Shown: positions 1,794 through 32,733, counted from the first letter of the stretch. The stretch: DNA of 33,383 bases from Collodictyon triciliatum (GCA_043381765.1 JBHJMP010000780.1:1-33383); one strand, 5' to 3'. Program-made: numbers and translations. Notes: generated by a model from the sequence alone, not told the origin.

Positions 1794-11514
<9,721 letters not shown>

Positions 11515-16002: not shown

Positions 16003-17660
16003 ATGCTGGCCGCTCAAAGACAACTCAGCCGGATCGCCTTTGGTCGAATCAAGGCAGCCGCTTTCGCCCAGCCGTGGAGGCGGCTGCAAACAGAATCTGC
16101 TGCGGCTGACGAGTCCGCAAACGCAGAGGCAGCAGACTTTGTGGATCGGCTCCGAAACGCTGCGTTTGAGGCCTTGACTGCCCCGCCAAAGTCTGACACA
16201 CTCACGCGGAAGGAGACCCTGGATCGCATTCTGCGAGTCGACCACGCGGGGGAACGCGGCGCCATCATGATCTACAAAGGCCAGCTTGATGCTCTACGCG
16301 GGTCTTCTGATGAGGCTATCATCAAGGTTTTCTTTTCTTTTCTCATATTTTATCATCAAGAGTTACTTAAACAACAATAACAAAAAAAAAACTATTCATC
16401 TTCATCATCTCTATTATCTCTATTATCTCTATTATCTCTATTATCTCTATTATCTCTATTATCTCTATTATCTCTATTATCTCTATTATCTCTATTATCT
16501 CTATTATCTCTATTATCTCTAGTATCTCTAGTATCTCTAGTATCTCTAGTATCTCTAGTATCTCTAGTATCTCTAGTATCTCTAGTATCTCTAGTATCTC
16601 TAGTATCTCTAGTATCTCTAGTATCTCTAGTATCTCTATCATCCCTATCATCTCTATCATCTCTTTTTCATATTTCTGGTGCAATTGCTATCAAGAACAA
16701 ATCACCTACTTGACTCTCTAGGAGATGGCGGATCAAGAACTGGAACACCTCCAGAAATTCAACGAGCTACTTCCTCAAAGGCGCGTGCGACCGACTCTGC
16801 TGATGCCGCTTTGGGATGTCGCGGGGTACACACTTGGATTCGTGACTGGAAAGATGGGGAAAGAGGCTGCGATGCTCTGCACAGTTGCAGGTCGGTATAC
16901 TAGACATTTTCTCGTCAGCCTTGGACTCCATGAAAATGAGCGTTGCAAATAACGTGCATATCTTTTAAAAAATATATAGTGAGAAAAAACTATCATTATC
17001 TGGTTTTTTTCTTTTCTATCGGTTGTTTGACTTGGTCCCATTTAAAACGGGACTTTTGCTAACCATGGTATTCACTGGTGTATATGTCTTCGTTTCGTGT
17101 GGCTCTGTAGTGGAGAAAGTAATTGGGAGCCACTATAACGACCAGCTGAGAGTTTTGCATGAACCACGATTCAAGGAGGAGAAGGAACTCAGAGAGGCAA
17201 CATTTTTCTTCTGTTCGAATATGTCCCTCTTTTTCTTTTCTTTTCTTTTTTTTTATCCCATATGGTATCGCCTCAGCATTCGTAGCTCCCACATTACGGA
17301 TCGCTTGGACGACCAAATCAGTGAAATAGCTTACGGATACCTCATTGTGTGATAGATTATCCGCAAGTTTCGAGATGACGAGATTGAACACCACGACATT
17401 GCCCAAGGAAGAGGAGCTGACCAGGTACATTCCATCACCTTAAAATCACAGGCGAGCAAGGAGATATGTCTAGCGCATGAGCCACGTTATCAGATAAAGT
17501 TGCGTGAATCCAATCGCCACCCATTTTGTTGTGATGCCATAAGCGTATATTGGAAAGTAGCTAATACAATCCACGAATGAAGGCGCCGGCTGCCTCAGCA
17601 CTTACTGCTGCCATTCAGATTGGATCGCACGTCGCCATCTGGGTTGCATCTCGAGTCTGA
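16003..17660 (+). CDS. COQ7: 5-demethoxyubiquinone hydroxylase (COQ7/CLK-1), mitochondrial, ~241 aa, 5 exons
   Basis: Exons 16003-16326, 16722-16890, 17111-17196, 17356-17424, 17583-17660. Motifs RILRVDHAGERGAIMIYKGQ, QELEH, RVRPTLLMPLW, AAMLCTVAVEKVIGSHYNDQLR, FRDDEIEHHD, AIWVASRV*. Arg/Ala-rich N-terminus resembles a mitochondrial presequence. Confidence 0.96.
16407..16662. repeat. Intronic 9-bp repeat (ATCTCTATT)n switching to (ATCTCTAGT)n
   Basis: Directly visible in COQ7 intron 1. Confidence 0.95.
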
Positions 17661-18901: not shown

Positions 18902-21900
18902 ATGCAAAGCACCATCGACGTCGCTATCGCCTTTTGTTTAGTCCTTCTCTGCTCTTCTAACATTGCAAGTCAGTATCGTTTCCGACCCATTCTCAATTTA
19001 TATACGTGATAAAAAAAAGCAACTTTCACATGACCAAACCTATGCAAAACTCTGCAAATGATTGGTAATATCTTTGTCTCGTAATTGCAGCCGGGCGAGT
19101 GCAGTTCGATGGTCCTTGGGAGATTCTGTCAAACAATCTACCTCCCCTCGACTCACGCACATCCCTTACGTACAATAACTCTGTCTATCTCTTTCCTGAA
19201 GGGTTTGATTCACATTCTATCATTTGTTAATAATATATATTCACAGTAAAAGCATCACTGATGAGTTTTTTATTTTAAAAACAAATACGATGATGTATGT
19301 TTTGAAAAGAACGTGCGACAATAAAAAGAGATTATCAACTAGTTATGCTGTCGACTGGGATGAGGATGAGAGGACAGTAAACCACATCTACCGATTTTAC
19401 GACATTCGTTTGTGATGTTTCGCGATTTTAAGACATAAATAAGTTTGATAAATGATTATGTACCAAATAAATAAAATCCTACCCAGGAGCACATATTTAA
19501 ATCCCCTTTTTTTGTTTTGTTTAAACTCGCAGAGGGAATCATATTACAGATTACATGTATGAATACTGTTTGAAGAAACTGTTATTAACGGGCTTCTTTT
19601 TTTGCTAGATGCTTTCAAGTCTGAGCTAGTAATGACAAACGGTGATGCACCCTTGGTCAGAGATGATTTCTGCACCGTGGTTATTGGTGACATGGTTAGT
19701 TGCATACTTTTGAGCCCACTTTGGCTGTCATACCATCTTCAAGTCCTGTAATTGATGCAAAATTGGTATTTACTTTATCTAAATAAAAACTGTTGTGCAG
19801 GTCTATCTGTTTGGAGGACTGACAGACTCATTCATGAGTGATTTGAACAGCTTGGATATGAAAACCCTAACATGGAACCAGATTCAGCCAAAGGGGAAAG
19901 CTCCTAGTGGGCGAAAATTCCCGGTATGTTTTGAATATAAAGGAAAGCTTCACATGTACAGTGGGTATCTACCCGTTGACGTCGGACGCGACCTTTGGAG
20001 TTACAATTCGGGTTTTGCATCATTGTTTACAAATATAATACATTAATTAATATTTCACAAATGAAAGACAAACCTTGGTCGTACAGCTTCGGCTGCAGTC
20101 TCATGACACTAAAATAAAATAAAAGAGAATACGTGTTTTAATGCCACTTATAATCGAACAGATACTATGGCATGGAGCCAAATCGGATACAGCCCTGGCA
20201 GTTATCCATACGTTTATACGCCCATAACAGCAGTTTACGAAGATAAATTGTACGTTTACGGCGGGAGAAATATCCTTGAGGTCATTGTGAACGACTTTTG
20301 GTCTTTTTCATTTGGTAATTATATTTTCTCTCAACATCATCAATACTTAAGCACTTTTACAGAATACCTCACTGATTCATTCTCACTGCAGATACACGAA
20401 TATGGACTGTTTTGGCACTATCGAATCCCAATCAGTACTCTCTTCCTGGTTCATATTTGGGCTCGTTTGCCACAGTTGGTAACAAGCTGTACTTTGTAGC
20501 TGGCCAGAATAAGAATGATGATAATCATCCTGACCCTGGCATATATGCAATCAACTTGGGTAAGTCAACACACACGTATTTTCACTCAAATTAATTATAC
20601 TTTGAAAAAACTGAAACAATGACTGAAACAATAACCGAAACAAGAACCCTAACTCAAAAGAAGAGAAGAGAAGAGAAGAGAAGAGAAAAGAAGAGAAAAG
20701 AAGAGAAAAGAAGAGAAAAGAAGAGAAAAGAAGAGAAAAGAAGAGAAAAGAAGAGAAAAGAAGAGAAAAGAAGAGAAAAGAAGAGAAAAGAAGAGAAAAN
20801 NNNNNNNNNNNNNNNNNNNNNNNNNNNNNNNNNNNNNNNNNNNNNNNNNNNNNNNNNNNNNNNNNNNNNNNNNNNNNNNNNNNNNNNNNNNNNNNNNNNA
20901 AAAGAAAAAAGAAAAAAAAAAAGAAAAGAAAAAAGAAAAGAAAAAAGAAAAGAAAAAAGAAAAGAAAAAAGAAAAGAAAAAAGAAAAGAAAAGAATAGAA
21001 AAGAATAGAAAAGAAAAGAAGAGAAAAGAAGAGAAAAGAAGAAAGAAGAAAGAAGAAAGAAGAAAGAAAAAAGAAGAAAAAAGAAGAAAAAATGAAAAAT
21101 GAAAATAAAAGAAAAGATAAAAGAAAAATGAAAATAAAAAGAAAAGAAAGAAAAAGAAAGAAAAATGAAAATAAAAAGAAAAATAAAAATAAAATGAAAA
21201 TAAAAAGAAAATAAAAAGAAAATAAAAAGAAAATAAAAAGAAAATAAAAAGAAAAAGAAAATGAAAATGAAAATAAAAAGAAAATGAAAATAAAAAGAAA
21301 ATGAAAATAAAAAGAAAATGAAAATAAAATGAAAATAAAAAGAAAATGAAAATAAAAAGAAAATGAAAATAAAAAGAAAATGAAAATAAAAAGAAAATGA
21401 AAATAAAAAGAAAATGAAAATAAAAAGAAAAGAAGAAAAGAAAGAAAAGAAAGAAAAAGAAAGAAAAAGAAAGAAAAAGAAAGAAAAAGAAAGAGGGAGG
21501 AAATGTTAAATTTTATCTGAAGCTTTCGTCCATATAGAAACTCTCGAGTTTGAATTATCCCAGACCTATGAGGATGTCGTCGACAGCTTTCCCTACCTCT
21601 ACGATTATCCAATGCCCCGGCTGTATTCCTCAATGACCGCTGTTGGAAAATTCCTCTTTCTTAATGGCGGTGAAGATATGTACATTACAGATGATGCATG
21701 GATATTCGACACTGGTATATATTCATACATTATATATATATTCATAATATGTACGCCTAATAGATTTCGAAAAAAAAATACTGAACAAAATTGAACACTT
21801 TGCAACAAAGACACAAACGAATGGGTTGGAACTTCCCAGAAGTATTATCCGATTGGTAGAGTTGGTGCAACAATCACCGCTCTGGACAGCCAAAAGCTTG

Positions 21901-24900
21901 CATTCTTTGGGGGTTTGTCGATATCACGAGAAGACACACTTATGAATGACCTCTGGATTTATGACATCAGTAAGTGGTTATTTATTTTAATAGAATCATG
22001 CCATTTAACCACTTTAGACTCACTACTTTACCAGGGAATTCCGAATGGGAGCTCATGTATGACAGAAGACTGCCCGGAGATGACGATACTGACGTTTTTC
22101 CTCCTCCTGTGGATAGCCCTGTATTTATTGATAAAACACACATCTTTTACACAGTTTTACCATCTTCTCACTGGCAACTTTCTCAAGATACTCTGTGGGA
22201 ACGATAACTACGTCTATCTGATTGGAGGAAATCCACCTTCCAACTGGACGAACGAGATATTCTTCCGATTTTCGATCGGTTTGGATGACTTGCGCTTGTT
22301 TTCACCCAAAATACCACTTTTTTAATTTATTTTGATTGAGTGGTAAAACACATAAACCTGATACGATTCATTTTAAAGCATCCAAGACATGGACCAGTAT
22401 GACACCAGACCCTGAGGTTCTCTACCTAGGAAAAGCATACGGTCAGGCATATGTGTGTAGTGATGCCAAAGTGACTGTTTGGGGAGGCATTAAGGCACAT
22501 GAGTATGATGCTTCAAACGAGCTTGGGAATGTGACGACCATCAATCTGCAGAACATGAGTCTTGAATACACCATCGCAGCATCCGACATTTCTGTGAGGG
22601 CAAAATCATCCGCCTTTCTACATGGCGGACATTTTTGCATCCAAGGAGGATGGGAAGTATTGAATGAAGACATGCAGGATGTGTTGTGCTTTGAAGGTTT
22701 TATTAAATTAAAAACGAAGCGATACCACATTACCGTTGATTTTTTCTTTTAAAATGCCCTCACAACTAAAATTCTGATAGATTCCTGGAAAAGATTGAAT
22801 AAGTCACAATACTCGGTTCCGTTTCTTTCTCAAACAAGCTTTGCCAATGTGGGCCTTGGTTTCTTGCTTGGAGGAAATGACGAATCTGGTAGCCCGACAA
22901 ATGACGTGTGGATTTATGATTTCGGTAATAATTAAATGTAGACCTATATGATTTTGAAAACTAGATACACATCCATCATATTTTTGCCATTTTTTAATTT
23001 TAATTTATTTTATTTTTTACTCAGAGAACAGCTTCTGGGATGTCACAAATCTCCCATCTTTTCGTCCCGCACCATTTGCGAGCTACTCAAAAGTAATCAT
23101 GAACGACTATATTCTGATGGCGTCCTCGAAGATGAATGAAGATGCTGACAACCGAATATGGGGCTACAAATATGGTAATAATACACATAACCTATGTACA
23201 AAGTCTACATTATTGTTAATCACTTTTGCTCTGTTTAAATGGCCGTCATCCCAAAGCATCATGGCTGCGCACAATTTAGAAAAATAAATAAATCATTTTA
23301 AATGTTAATAATTCGTTAACGTGCGTTATAGGCTATACATTTTGTTCTGGCTCAACCGCACTTGATGTAAGCGATTCAGGGTATTTGGCTGATGGAAGCG
23401 GGGACTTTGGATATTCCCCATTTACATCGTGTACTTGGAATGTAACTGGAACAAATAACTTGATAGTAAGAGTTCCATTGAGCATAATTTTATGAGGACA
23501 TATTTTCATGAATTTTTTTTAGATTGAAGAAGTTGGCATAGACCCGCATTCGACGATTTTTATCAAATTGAATGGAGAGTGCGGTGACCAAAACATCTAC
23601 GTAAATGGGGTCTCGTCTGGGGTTGAGGTAGATAAATCTTACTTTAGTTGTATCCAGCATTCTTGTACCCAGTGACAATTCTGATTTAACCAGCGCATTC
23701 ACGAATTTCTACGAGCAGGTGACTATAACGACGGAATCACAAGGTGCATGGGTTTTGATTCCATCCATGGAGTTTACTATCTCATTCACAACTTCGTCTC
23801 GCTACATATCCAGAACTGGATTCTCCTTCTTTTACATCGGTAATGTTAATTAAAATTTGTAACACAATACACCAAGTCACGCTACATGTATTATGTTGTA
23901 AAATATCCGTCTCTTCTTGGTAGAATGTCCTTCTGGATTTAATGTGTTCGAAAACGAGTGCTTATGCCCAGGGGGCTCATATATCACACCAAGTGGCGAA
24001 TGTGTTGCATGTTCTGATGGAACTCATCAAAATGCGGAAAATCAAGTAATGTTATAAATGATTATGTGAAGCACCAAATATTACCAAGGTTTATGTACCA
24101 TTTATTTATTTATTTACAAAAAAAAAAAAAACAGCGCTCGTGTATCGCAGATGTTCCTGATGAATACGCTCAAGGTTTCTATTTCTATGGATTTGAACGA
24201 TCACTTTCTTAATCATTTGCCATATAGCATAATATTTGTGCATGCAAATTTAATAAAAATATTTTTAGTCATTGTGGGAGCTGGAACAACAAAAGCCATC
24301 CTGAGGAGTCCTCCTTTGTGTTCTTATGTTATATCAGCCGAGTTTGAAAATACAATATACATCGTTTGCAGCGATTCCATCGAGACAGACGACCAGTTTC
24401 GGATGGATGTGACTGTTTTCTCTATAGAGTCTCCAAGTATGAAGAGATACGATAATTCATATTCTGCTGCATATAAGAAACATCTTCATTATGCACAAAC
24501 AAAAATGAAAAATGAAAAATGCTGCAAAAAATTACGTTTTTTTTTTGGTGCTTATTTTCTAACTTTACCAACTACATATTCAGCGGAGCTGAAATGGAAG
24601 CCTATCCCAACAACAGGAGATACTCCACCAAGTCGTAAAGGGGCATGCTTAGTCTCTACCAATAATCAGATTCTTTATCTGGGAGGAAAGGCATCTGTAG
24701 ACGACGATTCATTCACATACTCGTTCAGTCCACAAAACTCTCATTGGGCAAAAAAGAAAAAGGGGCTTATAAAAAATCCTGGGCATTCCTGCGCTCTGGA
24801 AGGTGGTCACGTTTACATGCATGGTGGAGAATCGGTATGAAATAGCTTGTAATAATTCTTGATTGTAATGGATAAAAAAAAAGCATATGTATTTGTGTAA

Positions 24901-27900
24901 ATTTCTGATGTTTACCCTAAAAACTATAGGAAAGTGGGGACATAGTTAACTCCTTCTTTTCTTACAACGTTGGTAAGATAAACTTTTCAATTTTTCTCTA
25001 CTTCGAATGAATAGTTTATCTGCAGCTGTTCCTTAATGGTGTTTTTATTTGATTCATATTCATAGACAAAGATGAATGGAATACAATTGTGTGGAACAAC
25101 TCTCCCTTGCTCTCTTATCATGCATCCTGGTCATACAAAAACAAACTGTATTTGCTTGGGGGCTATGACGGCAATCAAGAAGTGGATACTGTATATATTG
25201 GAGACCCTAGTATGTTCGGCATCTAGTTTTTTGTTTTCGCTTTCCTTTATCCATCATAGTCCACTCGCTTTTCCATATCTGAATCAAACAAATGTAGAAA
25301 TACATATTGTCTTGCGACTCAATTTTTTTTTTTATTAGAATCGAAGATATGGAGCGATTCAGCATTGAATTTGAATGAGTGTTTGGACTGTGTTCGAGGC
25401 GAGCTTTCTAGCTGTGGCATATCGCGACAGATGGCTGCTTTTGTAGGAAACGAGGACTATATCTACATTTTTGGAGGAGGCCGAGGAGACGCTGCGTTAT
25501 CAGACTTTATGGTCATCGAAAAATGTAGCAACTGAATTGCCGTTTTTCTTTTCCTTTTCCTTTTCCTTTTCCTTTTCCTTTTCCTTTTCCTTTTCCTTTT
25601 CCTTTTTTTTTTATACTATTTTTTTTGCATTTTTAAACCCTGTTTATTATTACCACAGCTAACTCATGTTAATCCTAGCAACCTTAACTGTCCTTGAAAA
25701 ATACGATTTTGGTGAAAAGGCTCCGCTGCCAATAAGAGCGCCAAGTCCTCAAATTCAATCCACAATGGCTATGGCGGGAGAATATCTAATCCTATTTGGG
25801 GGAAGTAATCCCAATACTGATGCTCCCAGCAACGAGATATGGGCTTATAACACGAGTAAAATTCTTATCATGTCAAAAAGTTATATATTGGTAAGGGAGT
25901 GAGTTGGAACTAAACTCTTGTGTTTCTCCCGCGCTAAATACCACAGATGTGAAGTCTTGGACCTCATCAACGACATCCAAGAAGCCGATTCCACGCCAAA
26001 GACACTCCTCTGTAGGCATCTATGAGGACGGATTCGCCATATTTGGTGGACTTGTATCTGTCGGTTCCCAGTACTTTGCCAATGACATGTGGATTTTCAA
26101 TACAAGTAATCCTTCCTAAACTTCAATTTTTTTTTATTTGTGCCCGTAAATCATGAAAATGTCCGACTTTAGTTGAAACATATTTGTATATTCAATAGCG
26201 TCCATGAAGTGGGTTTGCCTGAGTGAGCAGCGAGATGAGAGTGAGGCGCCTGAGCCTCGAAGTGACTTTGTTATGGGATATTTCAACAGTTCTGTATATG
26301 TCTTGGGTGGGAAGGGAGAAAGCGGACCAACGGATTCCAAAGTTTGGAAAGCATCTGTGCCCGAGAAAATCCCCACGGATACAATATTCTGTAATGTCCC
26401 ATCTGATAGGAGTCTATACATGACATATAATTTACCATTCCAAAAATATTACATTTTAAATAACTACCAAATAGTTTGGAAAAGAGAAGTCTTAAACGCC
26501 GCCATATACCGACCTTTTCACACAACCTAAATCATAGACCCTATCGAATGGGAAGTAGTCAAGGTGGACTCTCAGTTATCTAGCAAGCAAAATGTCCTGA
26601 AGCGCTACTCTGTGGCCAGTGTCATGCTAGAAAGCAGAATATTTATGTGGGGCGGTCAGGTAATTACATTTTTCTTTATCTCTTTTTTGCCTTTGCATGC
26701 TTAGGGACTAAGAGGTAGATAATATTCATAAACTTTCTTTAAAATTGACTAATTTTTAGATTATCCAAACGACTGGACAAATCGAAGATTATGGTTCTGT
26801 CTTTGTTTTCGATATGACTTCAAACACTATATCAGCGTTGCCATATTCAGGGCCATATCCAGTGAGTTGGTTCATTTACTTATTTTCTATTAATAGCCAA
26901 CTAGTTCTATGCATCTGACCTTCAATAATTTAAAATATACAGATTGCCAGAGTCTATCATTGTGCATTCATGCGTCACGAAGATTTCTGCATATTTGGAG
27001 GGCGTGACTTCAAAGGGCGCGTGTTGGGGGATATTTGGTGCTTCTCCCAAAGTATTATTTATATGTAGTTCAAATATGCCTCTTTTTTTTTTCCCCCTCA
27101 ATTTGTGTAGTTGTCACATGAAAGCGTTACCAATCAACCTCATCATAAGATAAAACGGAGTGGACCAAAGTATCGACCACATCATCCAACTCTTTCAAAA
27201 GATATGGGATGAGTTGCGGGATGGTCGGAAGCCACTTGATTATTTCCTCCGGATTCGACATATTCAATAATAGGCTGGGCGACGTAGCCGCTTTTCAATT
27301 TGGTAGGATGTTGGTCAATTAATTATTTTCGATTAGAATCGAATTCATATGAATAGACCACAAAGATTCGCACCAAATATCACTTTTTTATTTCATTTTT
27401 TGAAAGAAAACCTGTTGTGGATTCCAATGGGGGCTACAAACGACTTTGGTTCATCTTCTGTTGCATTCCATTCCACTGCACTCTTGGCTGATTTGCTTTA
27501 CAAATACGGAGGCACAACTGAATCAGGAGAGACGAACGAAGTATCAGTCACGAAAATCGGTTGGTTTTAGCAAATGAATGCTTGATAATTACATCGCTAA
27601 CATGGCTTGCACAGTCCTTTTTGTAACTAGTTTATACATTTTTAAATAATTCAATAAAGTCAGTAGTAAAATCCTGTTATTCAATCAAAAGGGATGTGTG
27701 ACTCCGAAACACCTGTTATGCTGACCGGAAGTCGGGAAGTATCGCAGTTAAATCCGCCAAGCTACGGAGGTTACATTATACCTGGGAGTCAGTGTCAATG
27801 GGTTATCGAAAATGCAAATAGCATGATAGCAAATGCGACACTAGCGGGCGAAGATGTGTATGCACATATTTAATATTAACTGCACCAAGTATACCCCCAC

Positions 27901-30900
27901 TTGTTTCCCCACTCTTTTTTTATCAAGTTATTTCGTCAATGAAAGTAATGATATTCTCATTTATTTGCTCAGAATTCGACTATACGATGTCGGTGATATG
28001 GAGGAGAAGCTTATCGGAATACTTAATGAAAAGGCTTCAAACATAGTCATAACCACAGGATTCAGTTCAATTCGAGTAGAAATGTTTATATCGGGGTCAA
28101 TATTTGACTCGGCAATTGAAAGAAACTTCGCAGCAATTTACTCAAGTATGTAAAAAAAAAAATTCCACTACACGCTTGTCGACTTCTACATTATTTCTCA
28201 TGATTTTTTTAACCTATCATCACCTCATAATTTAGATTGTCCGAAGGGAGCTGATTTCTCTTTCAGTGGATGTTCATGCCCATCCGGATATTACGAGGAT
28301 ATACAACGAAATCTTTGTCGTAAATGTAGCTCAGGAAGCAAGAATGTAAGTGCAAATTTAGTTAGTTTTTCAAAATCTGATGAACATAATATTATTTTTA
28401 TGCATTAAAAAACATATACTATATTAGACCGCATGCCCATCTTCGGGTGAAGATAATAGCGCTTTACTCGGGGGTGTGATAGGCGGTGTTTGCGGCGGTC
28501 TTTTGATTGTTGGTCTCATCTTTTACAAGCGCCATCGTGACCATATGAAAAATATTGCAGCACGAGAGCAAAAAATGTTCCTGCATGTTGCATACAAGGA
28601 ACTTGAGTTTGGGCAGATTCTAGGCTCAGGTTCATTTGGAGACGTACGTATCATTTCCTTTCAATCTTTAATTTAATTTTTTTTTGGTTATTATGGTATC
28701 AAATGATATCTCCCCAACCCACAATAAATCATGAAAATAATAACTGACATACAGGTGTACAAAGGGCTGTGGCGTGGGACAGATGTAGCAATTAAAAAGC
28801 TCAATTTTGGGAAAATCACAAAGAAGGCCATACAAGAATTCGAATCGGAAGTTTCAATCATGATGTAAGTGATTGGAAAATGAGTTTTTTTTTCTGAAAA
28901 TTATGTGTCTAATTATGATAAAAAATGGTGTTGATAAATGCGTGAATCAAAAATATTGTAATTTGTAGTGAACTTCGGCATCCAAATGTTGTTCTGTACA
29001 TGGCGGCGTGTGTAGAGCCTCCAAACCTCTGCATTGTATCTGAGCTTATGACGAGAGGAAGTCTATATGACGTAAAATTATTTAAAAATCCTGATTAGAT
29101 TGATTATAGACACTCAAATGAGAAAAATCATCAGATTCTGCATGATGAGCTCCTTGAAATCGGAATGGATATGAAAATCTCATTCTTGATTGATGCAGCC
29201 AAAGGTTTTATTATTGCACTAAATATTTCTTACAAATATACAGCAGATAAAGATACCGCATTCCATTTAAAGTACATTTTTTTCTATGGGAAATAGGTCT
29301 TCAATATCTGCATTTATCAAACCCACCTATTCTTCATCGTGATTTAAAGAGTCCCAATTTGCTGGTGCGTTTTTAGTTATCTATCTGATTTGTATCACAT
29401 TTAGCATGTAACCATAGTTGAAGCTCAAACCAAATTCATCTGTATCAAATTTTTATTATTCGCACAGCTGGATGAAAAATGGAACTTGAAAATAAGGTTC
29501 GATTAATGTGAATGTCACCCAATAGACCATGAGTTTGCATTTCTTGTTTGAGATAATATAATATGCTTATTTTCACTCATAACGGATAGCGACTTTGGCC
29601 TCACTGGTGTCCAAGAACAAGCAAAAAAGGAGTCTGAACCCCCTGGGACGTTGTTCTGGATGGCTCCGGAAGTAGTCAAAGGGATGACATACACGGAAAA
29701 GGCGGATGTATACAGTTACGCAATCATCTGTTGGGAGGTTTTTACCCGCTCAGACCCTTACGAGGTAAGAAAGAGTTTTTTTTATATAAGTTAGTGGATT
29801 GTTTTCTTTTTAATATAAATACGAATACATGACATCTTTAATTTTAATCAAGATAGTAATTTAAACGAAGAGAAAAGAAATAAGGAAAACTTTTATTGAA
29901 TGCTGTTTTTTTTTTTTTTTTGATAATATTAAAATTTCTTTAAAGTAGAATTTGTGGAAGTTTTATCATAGAAAAATGGATGTTATTGCAGGGAGAAATA
30001 GCCGAATCAGTTGCACTGCGAGTCACATGCGATGGATTTCGCCCAACCTTACCCGATTTCGCAATAATGCCTCAAGAGATTCAAGAATTGGTTCAGAAAT
30101 GCTGGGCTGCTGAAATTGACGCGAGACCGGCCTTTCCTGAAGTTTTGAGTTCGTTGAACATATTTTCGACCAATTTTGGCAATGTAACAGCTCAGCTTAA
30201 CAAAGGATTTGAGAAAGAAAAGGCTCCTATCGGCAACATAGCTATTGTCTTTACAGATGTGCAAAGCTCCACTTCTTTATGGGAGAAATCACCGGGTGCG
30301 ATGTCAAGCGCTCTTTCCATCCACAATGATATCTTGCGGGGAGTAATTAAGAGGAATAAGGTGATTGATGAGTTTTGATTTTTATTCTTCATTTTCTGGA
30401 TGAGTTATTGATTATTTTCAATAGATGAACTTCCTTTACCTATAACGGGTTTGAAAAGCATGTTCATTCCCTTTTTTCACAATATGCATATCATGATAGT
30501 TGAATAATTAAGTTTTTTTTTAATAAAATAAACACAAATATCAACACCAACAAACTCTTCAACAGGGTTATGAAGTGAAAACTGAAGGAGATGCTTTCAT
30601 GGTTACTTTTACCAGTGTTAAGAATGCACTCAGCTTTTGCCTCCAGTCGCAAGAGATGCTTCTGGCTGGAGATTGGGATTCTGAAATACTTAGCCATCCA
30701 TCTGGTCGAATGGAATTATACCAAGGAAAAATTATTTTTCGTGGTATTCGCGTCAGAATGGTCAGCATTTCAAATTTCTTTTGTAAATCGCTTTCCTTTT
30801 ACTTAGTTCTAAATATATATACATATATATCCTAATTTTATATATGGACTGTAGGGAATACACTTTGGCGAGCCGATATGCAAAGAAGACCCCGTCACTG

Positions 30901-32733
30901 GACGCATGGATTACTTTGGACCCGTCATTAATCGTGCGGCTCGCGTCGGAGGGTTTCCTAAGGGTGGACAAATCGCATTGAGTGAGCCAGCATATAAGGT
31001 TTCTTTTTAATGAAAAGTAATTTCAAGTGGTAGATTTTTTTGATATGCCTTTTCCTTCTCAACGAAAACCTTGCCTGTGTTTTACTAAAGCATGATTCTA
31101 TGGTGTTTCACAGGAAGTGGAGAAAGAGTTTGATTCTCTTGGAAATCCTCATGTTCGAGAACTTGGGGAACATCAACTGAAAGGCTTGGACACAACCGAT
31201 AAACTCTACGAGGTATAAACTATTAATGAAAGTTCAACCAAAACGACGTTCTAGTGGTAAATTCTAACTGATTCGGTCGCCTAGATTCTCCCAAAGTCGC
31301 TTGAAGACCGTGCACTGATTTTTTCTGGAGATACTGCAGGAACTTACGACTCTCCATCTTCAATAGTTGGCCAAGCAACAAGCGGAGGAGCAAGCACGGT
31401 ATGATTATTTGCATATATATAATATGCTACGTATTCCATGATTAATTTTGTGAGCTCAATCTTTCTGTTATTTTCGTTTAGACGGTTTCATCCTCTTGGC
31501 AATTGGAATACTCTGAAATCGATGAGACAGAAAAGCGACTCGGAGCAGGGTCATATGGAACTGTATTTTTAGGGAGTTTCAGAGGACAAGAGGTTGCTGT
31601 GAAAAAGTTTTTGAAACAAAAGATTGCCGAAAAGCAGTACTTTGGCCTCTTATCAGAGATTATGATTATAAAGTAAGTTTATTTTTGTGAGCTATTATTC
31701 GACCTACATAATCAAATTACCATTGTAATGCGAATATATTTAATGCCTAAACACGGGTCTTTCAACAGGGATTTACACCATCCTCACATTTTGAAATTCT
31801 ATGGCGCTTGTGTTAAGCAGCCCAACATTTGCATCGTCGTGGAATATGCAAAATATGGAAGCATGAAAGATGTCCTGGGTGACCCTTCGGTTTGTGATGC
31901 GATGACTTGATTATTTTTATTTTGGTGGAATCGTTTGATGAGAATAAATATTTTACACTGACATACATCGTAACATACAGATAAGCATAACTGTTCAACA
32001 ACAAAAAGCCATCATATATCAAATTTCTGATGCGATGGCTTACCTGCATTCTTTGAAACCTCCGGTTTTCCACCGAGATTTGAAAAGCCCTAACATTCTT
32101 GTATGCGACTAAATTAATTACTATCATAATTATGAAAAAAGGAATTCAATAGTTTATGATGTTTTATGGATTCATTTCTTATTATCTATTTTACAAATTA
32201 TTAAACTCCATGGTCAATCAGGTCACCGAAATTCAGCCGATGAGCGTGAAAGTCAGTGATTTCGGGTTTGCGAGAGCGAAAGCAGACAACCAAACCATGA
32301 CGAAATGTGGGACACGAGCTTGGTTGGCTCCCGAGGTATGCGTTGGTTCAATTCAATCCGTAATTCCACCATTATGTAGCCATGTTGGCTATCCCTTCAA
32401 AAGTACATCGCAGCGAATGTTGCATTTGCGAATGTGCTTTTATTGTGGCTCATACTCCCATCTCTTATATCTTAGATTTTGAAAGGCCAAAAGTACGATG
32501 AAAAAGCAGACGTCTTCAGCTTTGGGATTCTGGTTTGGGAGGTAGCTTCGCGACAACGCCCTTACGCCGATGTCGACCCCGTGAAAATCGGCTTCGAAGT
32601 GGTTAACGGCATGCGCCCAACACCTCCAAAGAATGCTGACCCGAAGATTGTGGATGTGATGAAACGCTGTTGGGATGCCGACACTGCAAAGCGCCCAAGT
32701 TTCCATGCCGTCTCAGAAGAGTTTGTGTCTTAA
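18902..32733 (+). CDS. Single-pass receptor: signal peptide - 2x(Kelch x~12, CUB, Cys-rich) - TM - TKL kinase - class III nucleotidyl cyclase - TKL kinase; ~52 exons
   Basis: Exon 1 [22 protein letters not shown] (18902-18968, in-frame TGA just upstream); repeated Kelch GG...W motifs; [28 protein letters not shown]; kinase 1 [27 protein letters not shown]; cyclase [37 protein letters not shown]; kinase 2 [30 protein letters not shown] 32731-32733. Continuity across the N gap is assumed from matching intron phase and a continuing Kelch blade. Confidence 0.9.
20655..21500. repeat. Long intronic A/G-rich compound repeat spanning the assembly gap
   Basis: (AAGAGAAAAG)n, (GAAAAAAGAAAA)n, (GAAAATGAAAATAAAAA)n. 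Confidence 0.93.
20800..20899. other. Assembly gap (100 N, true size unknown)
   Basis: Run of exactly 100 N inside a purine repeat. Confidence 0.99.
23331..24174 (+). other. CUB-like domain 1 plus Cys-rich (GCC2/GCC3, ephrin-receptor-like) repeat
   Basis: FCSGSTAL...[22 protein letters not shown]...[21 protein letters not shown] then CPSGF...CLCPGGSY...[18 protein letters not shown]. Confidence 0.75.
24269..27560 (+). other. Kelch repeat block 2 (~12 blades)
   Basis: Blade cores IYIVCS, ILYLGG, VYMHGG, LYLLGG, LYIFGG, LILFGG, FAIFGG, VYVLGG, IFMWGG, FCIFGG, LIISSG, LYKYGG. Confidence 0.85.
25546..25612. repeat. Intronic (TTTTCC)n microsatellite
   Basis: Directly visible. Confidence 0.9.
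27692..28440 (+). other. CUB-like domain 2 plus Cys-rich repeat
   Basis: [10 protein letters not shown]...[14 protein letters not shown]...IRLYD...IRVEMF...NFAAIYS then CPKGA...CSCPSGYY...CRKCSSG...C. Confidence 0.65.
28461..28526 (+). other. Transmembrane helix with stacked GxxxG motifs
   Basis: [22 protein letters not shown] followed by basic KRHR. Confidence 0.9.
28600..30160 (+). other. Protein kinase domain 1 (TKL/Raf-like Ser/Thr)
   Basis: All catalytic motifs intact; includes a 29-nt microexon 29468-29496 (LDEKWNLKI). Confidence 0.95.
30220..31320 (+). other. Class III nucleotidyl cyclase domain, adenylyl-type residues
   Basis: [21 protein letters not shown]...[13 protein letters not shown]...[15 protein letters not shown]...[20 protein letters not shown]...GGQI...LGEHQLKGL. 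Confidence 0.95.
31500..32733 (+). other. Protein kinase domain 2 (TKL)
   Basis: [69 protein letters not shown]...RPSF. Confidence 0.95.

Follow-up and report, generated by a model that had tools for sequence, protein, structure and literature searches.

A predicted receptor gene with a duplicated Kelch-CUB ectodomain and a kinase-cyclase-kinase core, orthologous to Diphylleia rotans DN159

The 33,383 nt stretch of DNA analysed here (the window) carries a long locus in which an ectodomain resembling those of animal attractin and MEGF8 appears to be joined to a cytoplasmic kinase-cyclase-kinase core, and the question it raises is whether this is truly one gene, with its enzymes intact, and how far the combination is new. 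The locus is probably best explained as a single, intact gene whose product is a 'cyclase kinase' receptor of type I topology with one membrane pass and a duplicated Kelch-CUB-Cys ectodomain, the ortholog of DN159 of Diphylleia rotans, that would respond to a ligand by both cAMP production and phosphorylation.

Gene Model and Domain Order

The coding region occupies positions 18902-32733 of the + strand (as do all features below), from an ATG at 18902 to a TAA ending at 32733, exactly as delimited by the sequence-only reading of this DNA. It was modelled with our own dynamic programme for splicing, refined against P0001, a complete Trinity ORF of 2479 aa from the D. rotans gene DN159 (EukProt EP00002), and comprises 52 exons that total 7413 nt with the stop codon and form one open model of 2470 aa. 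Exons 1-13 lie at 18902-18968, 19091-19202, 19343-19407, 19609-19694, 19801-20011, 20162-20314, 20392-20559, 21538-21714, 21811-21969, 22035-22120, 22188-22278, 22379-22696 and 22781-22924; exons 14-26 at 23025-23174, 23332-23465, 23523-23627, 23719-23839, 23924-24045, 24135-24174, 24269-24436, 24584-24834, 24930-24972, 25066-25209, 25339-25524, 25679-25855 and 25947-26105; exons 27-39 at 26199-26390, 26538-26659, 26760-26861, 26943-27051, 27150-27302, 27407-27559, 27692-27857, 27973-28145, 28236-28345, 28428-28643, 28755-28864, 28969-29071 and 29135-29204; and exons 40-52 at 29297-29364, 29468-29496, 29590-29764, 29992-30360, 30566-30760, 30855-30998, 31114-31212, 31285-31398, 31482-31672, 31769-31889, 31981-32100, 32222-32335 and 32476-32733. 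Exon borders within the ectodomain are homology-guided, taken from P0001 rather than supported by reads. Fifty of the 51 introns are 57-227 nt long, and all are GT..AG because the splice search admitted no other type. The remaining one, intron 7 (20560-21537), measures 978 nt as assembled and contains a gap of 100 Ns (20800-20899), which may conceal sequence, flanked by A/G-rich tandem repeats (20656-20799 and 20901-21492).

A signal peptide comes first, and after it a module that occurs twice in succession, each copy made up of about 12 Kelch blades, a CUB domain and a Cys-rich unit; then follow a transmembrane (TM) helix, a kinase, a class III cyclase and a second kinase. This anatomy had been proposed from the sequence alone, and is borne out. 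Only two segments are hydrophobic by a Kyte-Doolittle 19-residue mean above 1.8. One, at aa 3-23, is signal-like and marks the N-terminus (aa 1-22) encoded with the start codon by exon 1 (18902-18968); the N-terminus of P0001 is similar, and is followed by a conserved FDGPW. The other is the single TM helix (aa 1650-1673, 28458-28529; hydropathy peak 2.36), directly followed by KRHRDH.

Ectodomain

Kelch region A (aa 30-655, 19111-23152) and Kelch region B (aa 860-1490, 24337-27693) were recognized by Pfam Kelch matches, and region A also by the ATRN/LZTR1 propeller, on frame translations of the window in which stops were read as X (PF24681, 7e-30; PF24981, 9e-18); P0001 gives 1e-130 for Kelch and 4e-84 for PF24981. 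Of the 20 blades detected by a blade HMM built here, nine in region A and 11 in region B, 15 reach i-E ≤ 0.01. Three further blades in region A were placed from the spacing and from the blades of P0001. The spacing and the alignment of the two regions (hhalign probability 100%, E 2e-76, 596 columns) suggest 12 + 12 blades, so that the total of about 24 put forward earlier is plausible as a count, with 20 recognized directly by the HMM.

CUB-like domain 1 (aa 665-782, 23337-23838) was identified by modelling the corresponding segment of the ortholog with AF2, from alignment A1 (pLDDT 82.3). Foldseek against the PDB returned 34 matches at E ≤ 0.001, the top ones listed being CUB domains, among them PCPE-1, neuropilin, MASP-1 CUB2 (TMt 0.67) and C1r CUB2, and the CUB fold is clear in the model of this unit of the ortholog. 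At the sequence level, Pfam CUB (PF00431) appeared at E ≤ 1 in three of the 12 segments taken from paralogs, at E 0.004 in the best case, the best score in the ortholog/paralog scan was 20.2 bits (P0004), below the gathering cut-off of 21.4, and a PDB profile search with the CUB-like segments gave no matches. Since the sequence matches are sub-threshold but the fold test is positive, the domains are named 'CUB-like'. Cys-rich unit 1 (aa 783-830, 23839-24155) is marked by invariant cysteines in alignment A1. CUB-like domain 2 (aa 1492-1602, 27697-28144) and Cys-rich unit 2 (aa 1603-1643, 28145-28439) are homologous to the first pair (hhalign probability 99.4%, E 2.8e-21, 141 columns). The only profile matches for the Cys-rich units were sub-threshold: TNFR_ELAPOR1_6th in 7/12 segments and Ephrin_rec_like in 4/12. 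The ectodomain has arisen by duplication in tandem of a unit some 820 aa long, consisting of about 12 Kelch blades, a CUB domain and a TNFR/ephrin-receptor-like Cys-rich unit.

Catalytic Core and Its Conservation

Protein kinase 1 (aa 1697-1955, 28599-30168) has the motifs GSGSFG and VAIK (K1725), and protein kinase 2 (aa 2213-2467, 31509-32721) has GAGSYG and VAVK (K2244); both match Pfam PK_Tyr_Ser-Thr on frame translations (4.2e-29 for kinase 2). In each, all seven diagnostic residues are present: the G-loop, the VAIK/VAVK Lys, the alphaC Glu, the HRD Asp, the catalytic Asn, the DFG Asp and the APE Glu. In P0001, PF07714 (PK_Tyr_Ser-Thr) matches in two stretches (7e-122) with PF00211 (Guanylate_cyc, 3.7e-22) between them, and PF07714 scores 406 bits against 362 for PF00069. 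The PDB neighbours of the kinase 1 C-lobe are KIT, RIPK1, ZAK and MET; the motif HRDLKSPN is typical of TKL kinases, the group suggested for both kinases by the sequence-only reading. For the class III nucleotidyl cyclase (aa 1972-2146, 30217-31155) the best PDB matches are 1fx4 and 1fx2 (E 2.5e-6, 1.2e-3 and 0.12 for three exons), and the cyclase exons align with the active Trypanosoma brucei enzymes over the FTD, EVKTxGD and DYxG...N.AAR motifs. Activity of such domains depends on six residues: two metal-binding Asp, a Lys/Asp pair that contacts substrate, and an Asn and an Arg that stabilize the transition state. The hexad is complete here (D1985, K2024, D2028, D2103, N2110, R2114) and in P0001. 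The earlier claim of intact catalytic motifs in all three enzymes therefore stands, and both kinases and the cyclase are predicted to be catalytically competent.

Conservation of these residues was tabulated over 33 rows, 16 of them Diphylleia Kelch paralogs. All seven residues of kinase 1 are kept in 32/33 rows, and those of kinase 2 in 29/33. The cyclase hexad (D-K-D-D-N-R) is retained in only 10/33, including three of the 16 Kelch paralogs; it is degenerate in the other 13, in Pandoravirus and in several other family members. Since the cyclase has decayed in most members while the kinases are kept, the common function of the family would not need cyclase catalysis. The receptor might then signal through its kinases, with the cyclase domain acting between them as a scaffold or a means of pairing and making little or no cyclic nucleotide, as is apparently so for most paralogs. 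For the window gene this is unlikely. It belongs to the minority of Kelch paralogs that keep the hexad, and its cyclase domain is identical to that of P0001 at 136/175 positions (78%), a level as high as in the kinases, which, with all six residues kept in both proteins, suggests that catalysis has been under selection in this pair of orthologs.

Orthology and Integrity of the Locus

In a global alignment the window protein and P0001 correspond from end to end, with 1398 of 2461 aligned positions identical (57%) and 27 gap positions, no gap reaching four residues. Identity is 74% in the cytosolic part (586/794) vs 49% in the ectodomain (795/1620). In a tree, the window protein and P0001 group as sisters with an SH-aLRT of 100, nested among the Diphylleia sequences. 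DN159 and the window gene are orthologs; the source organism of the latter is a close relative of D. rotans, and the paralog family expanded before the two split.

Between exons 7 and 8, the N gap and the roughly 850 nt of low-complexity repeats that accompany it leave room for another reading, in which the locus would be more than one gene or a product of misassembly, with an attractin-like secreted or membrane protein upstream of a separate kinase-cyclase-kinase gene, or a 5' part that is foreign across the gap. Such an arrangement is very improbable. The residues of P0001 continue without loss over the intron 7 junction, and this unbroken alignment indicates that the locus is one gene. Since the ectodomain exon borders were tuned to P0001, collinearity with it is partly built in, but the tblastn HSPs of P0001 made before any tuning were already collinear from 19081 to 32730. 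Exon 28428-28643 runs in one open frame from the last part of Cys-rich unit 2 through the TM helix and the juxtamembrane KRHRDH to the G-loop of kinase 1, and exon 29992-30360 connects the C-lobe of kinase 1 to the N-terminus of the cyclase. The full architecture is also found in single transcripts of D. rotans, from no fewer than 16 Trinity genes (DN159 and 15 further). The sequence-only reading of a single polypeptide is accordingly upheld.

Relationship to Cyclase Kinase Receptors

'Cyclase kinase' receptors, in which a single TM helix separates an extracellular domain from a class III cyclase with a protein kinase on either side, are described in published reports: Acanthamoeba castellanii has 66 and Physarum polycephalum 43, and others occur in pandoraviruses and further amoeba viruses (PMC4053784, PMC4758236, PMC5203793). 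The window exons and motifs, like the Pfam matches of P0001, give the same kinase, cyclase, kinase series, preceded by a predicted extracellular region and single TM helix on hydropathy. In phmmer searches 32 relatives match over almost the whole length of the core (envelopes at positions ~1-777), including Pandoravirus P0064 and Fabomonas P0206; Mastigamoeba P0030 and P0050 are also among the matches, and the core thus occurs in both Fabomonas and Mastigamoeba. None of the proteins to which a name could be given came from Acanthamoeba or Physarum. On this whole-core homology and the literature cited above, the core belongs to the cyclase kinase family, as had been proposed from its likeness to Acanthamoeba and giant-virus receptors; of the mimivirus genes named in that proposal (R818, R826, R831), R818 was not found together with mimivirus in the literature searched. 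The published cellular members are amoebozoan, whereas the host of the window gene belongs to a lineage related to Diphylleia, and the window protein retains the cyclase hexad that is degenerate in Pandoravirus and several others.

The ectodomains of other members examined here include PBP_like_2+EGF, SBP_bac_1+Fz, Sod_Cu (Cu/Zn-SOD), Laminin_G_3, 5'-nucleotidase C and DUF4215, and the core is a modular platform bearing many different ectodomains. The window protein instead carries Kelch and CUB, a combination found on this core only in D. rotans among the other proteins examined. No paper describing the pairing was found in the literature searched, so this part of the earlier reading holds, but its suggestion of uniqueness was overstated, given the D. 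rotans genes that share it. Those ORFs have the full architecture in common with the window protein, but they come from a different organism and are known only as uncharacterised predictions from its transcriptome, most of them without the full set of cyclase catalytic residues. With the same architecture in so many genes and a modular core, the window gene represents a lineage-specific variant of a known receptor family; what is new is the Kelch-CUB outer part, the family itself being known from amoebae and giant viruses.

Proposed Signalling and Origin

An extracellular ligand, perhaps a prey glycan or surface protein, would be bound by the Kelch and CUB modules, altering the pairing of two receptor chains. 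Class III cyclase domains must pair to form active sites, and the two cyclase domains might thereby be brought to make cAMP, while both flanking kinases could phosphorylate the opposite chain as well as targets further down the pathway, giving a receptor with putative phosphorylation and cAMP outputs. The cAMP prediction follows from Lys2024/Asp2103, an ATP-type pair. That the product is cGMP, or both nucleotides, is scarcely credible: PF00211 spans both enzyme types, but guanylate cyclases carry a Glu/Cys pair at these specificity positions, and the solved structures closest to this domain are those of adenylate cyclases.

A broader scenario is offered tentatively, as a speculation that may well not hold in full. 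The kinase-cyclase-kinase platform would be much older and wider than Amoebozoa and viruses; if it is also present in diphyllateans (CRuMs) and ancyromonads, then giant viruses would have captured their copies from a receptor family of ancient eukaryotic origin. The Diphylleia lineage would have recruited an attractin/MEGF8-type Kelch-CUB sensor and expanded it into a prey- or glycan-sensing family, of which a minority, including the window gene, still emits cAMP. If true, this would be the first case of an attractin-type ectodomain wired directly to enzymes, and would give a handle on the binding partners of such ectodomains.

Comparison with Other Receptors

Animal attractin, attractin-like 1 and MEGF8 are single-pass proteins with an extracellular ATRN/LZTR1-type Kelch propeller beside CUB and Cys-rich units. 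They also contain PSI and laminin-type EGF domains (and, in attractin, a C-type lectin), and end in a short, non-enzymatic cytoplasmic tail. The window protein shares the ATRN-type propeller and CUB fold, its repeated Kelch-CUB module is reminiscent of MEGF8, and its nearest Atlas clusters are attractin-like (scores 0.87-0.75, taken as leads only). It differs in having about 12 blades per module rather than six and a cytoplasmic part of about 800 aa with three enzyme domains, and PSI, C-type lectin and laminin-EGF gave no Pfam match at E ≤ 0.01 in P0001, P0003, P0004 or P0005. The label 'attractin/MEGF8-like' is thus apt for the domain types but does not extend to these accessory domains.

Animal receptor guanylyl cyclases are likewise single-pass receptors, in which one inactive kinase-homology domain precedes a class III cyclase of Glu/Cys specificity and the ectodomain is of the ANF-receptor type. 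In the window protein, by contrast, there are two kinases, each with its full set of motifs, and the specificity pair is Lys/Asp; ANF_receptor gave no Pfam match in the ortholog/paralog scan, and the protein falls outside this class. The receptor adenylate cyclases GRESAG4.1 and GRESAG4.3 of T. brucei (PDB 1fx2, 1fx4) are not known to contain kinase domains, and their ectodomain is of another type. Like the window protein they are predicted to cross the membrane once and carry their cyclase inside the cell, and they provide the nearest solved cyclase domains, sharing FTD..SST..LW and YEVKTxGD with the window protein.

Gene model of the receptor locus

The receptor gene at 18902-32733 (+ strand) belongs to a known family of modular receptors with a kinase 1-class III cyclase-kinase 2 core; its ectodomain is a lineage-specific variant, and the eukaryotic lineage that carries it is new to the family. 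A Pfam scan of the window between 18.6 and 33.4 kb, translated in three frames with stops as X, revealed Kelch matches (PF24681, E 7e-30; the attractin/LZTR1 propeller PF24981, E 9e-18), PK_Tyr_Ser-Thr in all three frames (top E 4.2e-29) and a weak, intron-split match to Guanylate_cyc (E 0.0054). Splicing of the 3' third by eye gave an unbroken kinase-cyclase-kinase frame ending at a TAA stop codon (32731-32733). The full model was produced by our own dynamic programming, based on splice sites and codon bias, then with tblastn evidence, and donors and acceptors were refined against P0001, a 2479 aa transcript ORF of Diphylleia rotans gene DN159 and the ortholog of the window gene. Unguided splice models were dropped, as they mis-spliced kinase 1, contained spurious exons of 3 and 11 nt and read through several introns. 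The homology-guided model has 52 exons and 7413 nt with the stop codon, and encodes 2470 aa. Fifty introns are 57-227 nt long and one is 978 nt (20560-21537), all being GT..AG by construction. The long one, intron 7, contains a 100-N gap flanked by A/G-rich tandem repeats with periods of 10, 11 and 17 (20656-20799 and 20901-21492), and these repeats probably account for the break in the assembly. The start ATG at 18902 leads into a hydrophobic N-terminus, and the sole further hydrophobic stretch (aa 1650-1673) is followed by KRHRDH, an arrangement that fits a type I topology with a TM helix at this position.

A single Kelch-CUB/kinase-cyclase-kinase receptor had been proposed in the sequence-only reading, and this is borne out by the gene model and its end-to-end alignment with P0001. 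Exon 28428-28643 is one open frame running from the end of Cys-rich unit 2 through the TM helix and a juxtamembrane stretch to the kinase-1 G-loop, and exon 29992-30360 links the kinase-1 C-lobe to the N-terminus of the cyclase. Globally, the model and P0001 are identical at 1398 of 2461 positions; 27 positions are gapped, no single gap reaches four, and the alignment is unbroken over the N-gap intron. Since the exon borders were tuned to P0001, this fine collinearity is partly built in; it is not built into the untuned tblastn series of P0001 on the window. Of the 37 HSPs, those of the main series lie in collinear order between 19081 and 32724, with P0001 residues 222-292 to the left of the N gap and 289-417 to its right, and those outside it are cross-matches between repeated domains. 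The same search found no second receptor copy in the window, and an upstream tandem paralog is ruled out by the lack of any HSP below 19081. Among proteins of 1967-6260 aa, four 'complete' Trinity ORFs were found with Kelch, kinase and cyclase Pfam families, their source being the D. rotans transcriptome in EukProt; a search with exon 29944-30375 among proteins of 253-2000 aa gave no match.

Organization of the ectodomain

Kelch region A (aa 30-655), CUB-like unit 1 (aa 665-782) and Cys-rich unit 1 (aa 783-830) are followed by Kelch region B (aa 860-1490), CUB-like unit 2 (aa 1492-1602) and Cys-rich unit 2 (aa 1603-1643). Internal repeats were examined by profile-profile comparison after the window protein had been aligned with 13 Diphylleia paralogs. 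Kelch A matched Kelch B with a probability of 100% (E 2e-76, 596 columns) and the first CUB-like plus Cys-rich pair matched the second at 99.4% (E 2.8e-21), establishing the two halves as duplicates of each other. With a custom blade HMM, the window protein shows 20 blades, 15 of them at i-E<=0.01, and P0001 shows 21; blade spacing and the alignment of A with B suggest that there are 12 per Kelch region, which would be expected to fold as a pair of six-bladed propellers.

The CUB-like segments fall below the Pfam CUB threshold (20.2 vs 21.4 bits in the relative P0004; three of 12 segments at E<=1), and a PDB profile search with the CUB/Cys-rich alignment returned no matches at E<=1. The P0001 segment, aligned with 11 paralog segments, was modeled by AlphaFold2 with a mean pLDDT of 82.3, and Foldseek gave 34 PDB matches to the model at E<=0.001. 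The matches listed are CUB domains, among them those of PCPE-1, neuropilin (a2), enteropeptidase, MASP-1 (CUB2, TMt 0.67) and C1r (CUB2). In Pfam, the Cys-rich units gave only sub-threshold matches, to TNFR_ELAPOR1 and Ephrin_rec_like, and no match to a PSI, C-type lectin or laminin-EGF family appeared. A protein-atlas search with residues 1-790 of the relative P0013 returned attractin-like clusters at 0.87-0.75, which lie under the 0.9 mark and are leads only. The Kelch-CUB ectodomain belongs to the attractin/MEGF8 type, for which animal ligands are poorly understood; a form with built-in enzymatic read-outs could report what such modules bind. Many Trinity isoforms of the D. rotans genes lack the first Kelch-CUB module, including DN159 forms of 1623 and 1760 aa, and these could be assembly fragments or genuine shorter isoforms.

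Kinases and cyclase of the cytosolic core

Each of the two kinases shows the G-loop, the VAIK/VAVK lysine (K1725 and K2244), the alphaC Glu and the APE motif. In class III cyclases, six residues serve in two-metal binding, adenine selection and transition-state stabilization; all six are kept in the window protein (D1985, D2028, K2024, D2103, N2110 and R2114), and the Lys/Asp pair predicts cAMP as the product. The anatomy originally read from the DNA, both in domain order and in intact motifs, proved right. Among solved structures, the three cyclase exons come nearest to GRESAG4.3/4.1, receptor adenylate cyclases of Trypanosoma brucei (E 2.5e-6, 1.2e-3 and 0.12); one of them, exon 30566-30760, had no PDB match at E<=0.01, and at E<=10 only 1fx2/1fx4 (E 0.12). 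An uncontrolled, alignment-free complex prediction for a pair of P0001 cyclase domains scored 0.00 and speaks neither for nor against their pairing.

Residues were tabulated for 33 aligned cores, of which the most divergent may be misaligned: the cyclase hexad (D-K-D-D-N-R) is complete in 10, all seven kinase-1 residues are found in 32, and all seven kinase-2 residues in 29. The Pandoravirus core P0064 is among those with a degenerate hexad. Less probably, the cyclase domain is mainly a pairing module, a reading favored by the finding that just three of the 16 Diphylleia Kelch rows (P0001, P0178 and P0003) have a complete hexad, with kinase residues mostly kept, but weakened by the window gene and its ortholog, which by their residues belong to the catalytically intact minority of Kelch paralogs. 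The other 13 of the 16 D. rotans Kelch-type paralogs have lost at least one cyclase catalytic residue, both kinases being intact, so that enzyme and pseudoenzyme forms appear to stand side by side in one family. Such close paralogs provide a clean comparison for the evolution of pseudoenzymes from enzymes.

Relatives and phylogeny

When the core, read through in one frame, was searched against the library with HMMER, 18953 matches reached E<=0.001. Of 176 proteins collected by then, 81 matched the P0001 cyclase segment. Kelch domains also occur in 11 of 150 listed representatives, all 11 from D. rotans; with the four complete ORFs and P0204, at least 16 D. rotans Trinity genes share the architecture, and the uniqueness first attributed to this pairing of ectodomain and core was overstated. 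The view that it is undescribed holds for the searchable literature, although the Diphylleia transcriptome had already made the sequences public. In searchable text, no paper on this architecture or lineage was found, whether for 'cyclase kinases', for Kelch/CUB combined with cyclase and kinase domains, or for cyclases, kinases or receptors of Diphylleia/Collodictyon, and none of the papers listed names both R818 and mimivirus. Papers of 2013 and 2016 held that, among cellular organisms, only Acanthamoeba has cyclase-kinase receptors, and these were later reported from Physarum too. Published counts are 43 cyclase kinases for Physarum and 66 for Acanthamoeba (PMC4758236), and none for Protostelium (PMC5804921).

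Sources of relatives sharing only the core include Fabomonas tropica, Mastigamoeba balamuthi and Pandoravirus. Pfam ectodomain families among the relatives are SBP_bac_1 with Fz (P0206, F. tropica), PBP_like_2 with EGF (P0064, Pandoravirus), PBP_like_2 (P0066 and P0072), the 5'-nucleotidase C-terminal domain (P0043), Laminin_G_3 (P0074), DUF4215 (P0138) and Sod_Cu (P0029, D. rotans). The last is a kinase-cyclase-kinase receptor of 1684 aa with an external Cu/Zn superoxide-dismutase domain (3.3e-31), a candidate for an odd sensor, and its cyclase keeps only four of the six catalytic residues. One core with many ectodomains forms a natural domain-swap set for asking how two kinases and a dimeric cyclase are driven by a receptor that crosses the membrane once.

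In a quick maximum likelihood tree of 33 cores (LG+G4, 788 columns, SH-aLRT support only), P0001 is the sister of the window protein (support 100), and the pair is nested within a clade (support 87) made up of the 18 Diphylleia rows and the window protein; the next branch holds Fabomonas and one other row (support 93). This placement suggests that the paralogs predate the split of the window organism from D. rotans, and that the two are close relatives. The presence of the core in a relative of Diphylleia, with database matches in Fabomonas and Mastigamoeba, bears on the origin of the giant-virus copies. The receptor itself is unlikely to be a viral insert, given its 51 spliceosomal-type introns and neighbor-like composition. 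P0032, a 98 aa ORF from a 524-bp NCBI contig, is 97% identical to a one-frame read-through of 31963-32256, intron included, indicating that tiny public contigs hold genomic DNA from this organism or one very close to it.

Neighboring genes and repeats

The DNA of the window is eukaryotic, its G+C content is about 38%, and its introns are short and of the GT..AG type. The immediate upstream neighbor of the receptor is COQ7 (ubiquinone biosynthesis; about 16.1-17.3 kb, + strand; E 6.5e-21 and 1.7e-19, in at least two frames), which has a 9-nt repeat inside it at 16407-16664. A leucine-rich-repeat gene lies on the minus strand at about 11-14.5 kb (LRR_4, 1.8e-8; LRR_8, 4.5e-6), and a formin gene on the plus strand at about 7.3-10.5 kb (FH2, E 1.2e-11 and 8.7e-6, in two frames), where proline-rich FH1 repeats with a 57-nt period (7695-7866) precede FH2. 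A match to an AIR9 A9-type Ig domain (about 2850-3250, + strand; E 7.7e-11) adjoins a coding-like 12-nt and 117-nt repeat at 2344-2622. No functional link of the receptor to these four neighbors or to the satellite-like repeat at the window edge is suggested. That repeat (1-1090) consists of about 101 tandem copies of the 11-nt unit CACACTCTCAT and may represent either a satellite or the repeat of a chromosome end; it is G-free on the given strand, with a GC skew of -1.0.
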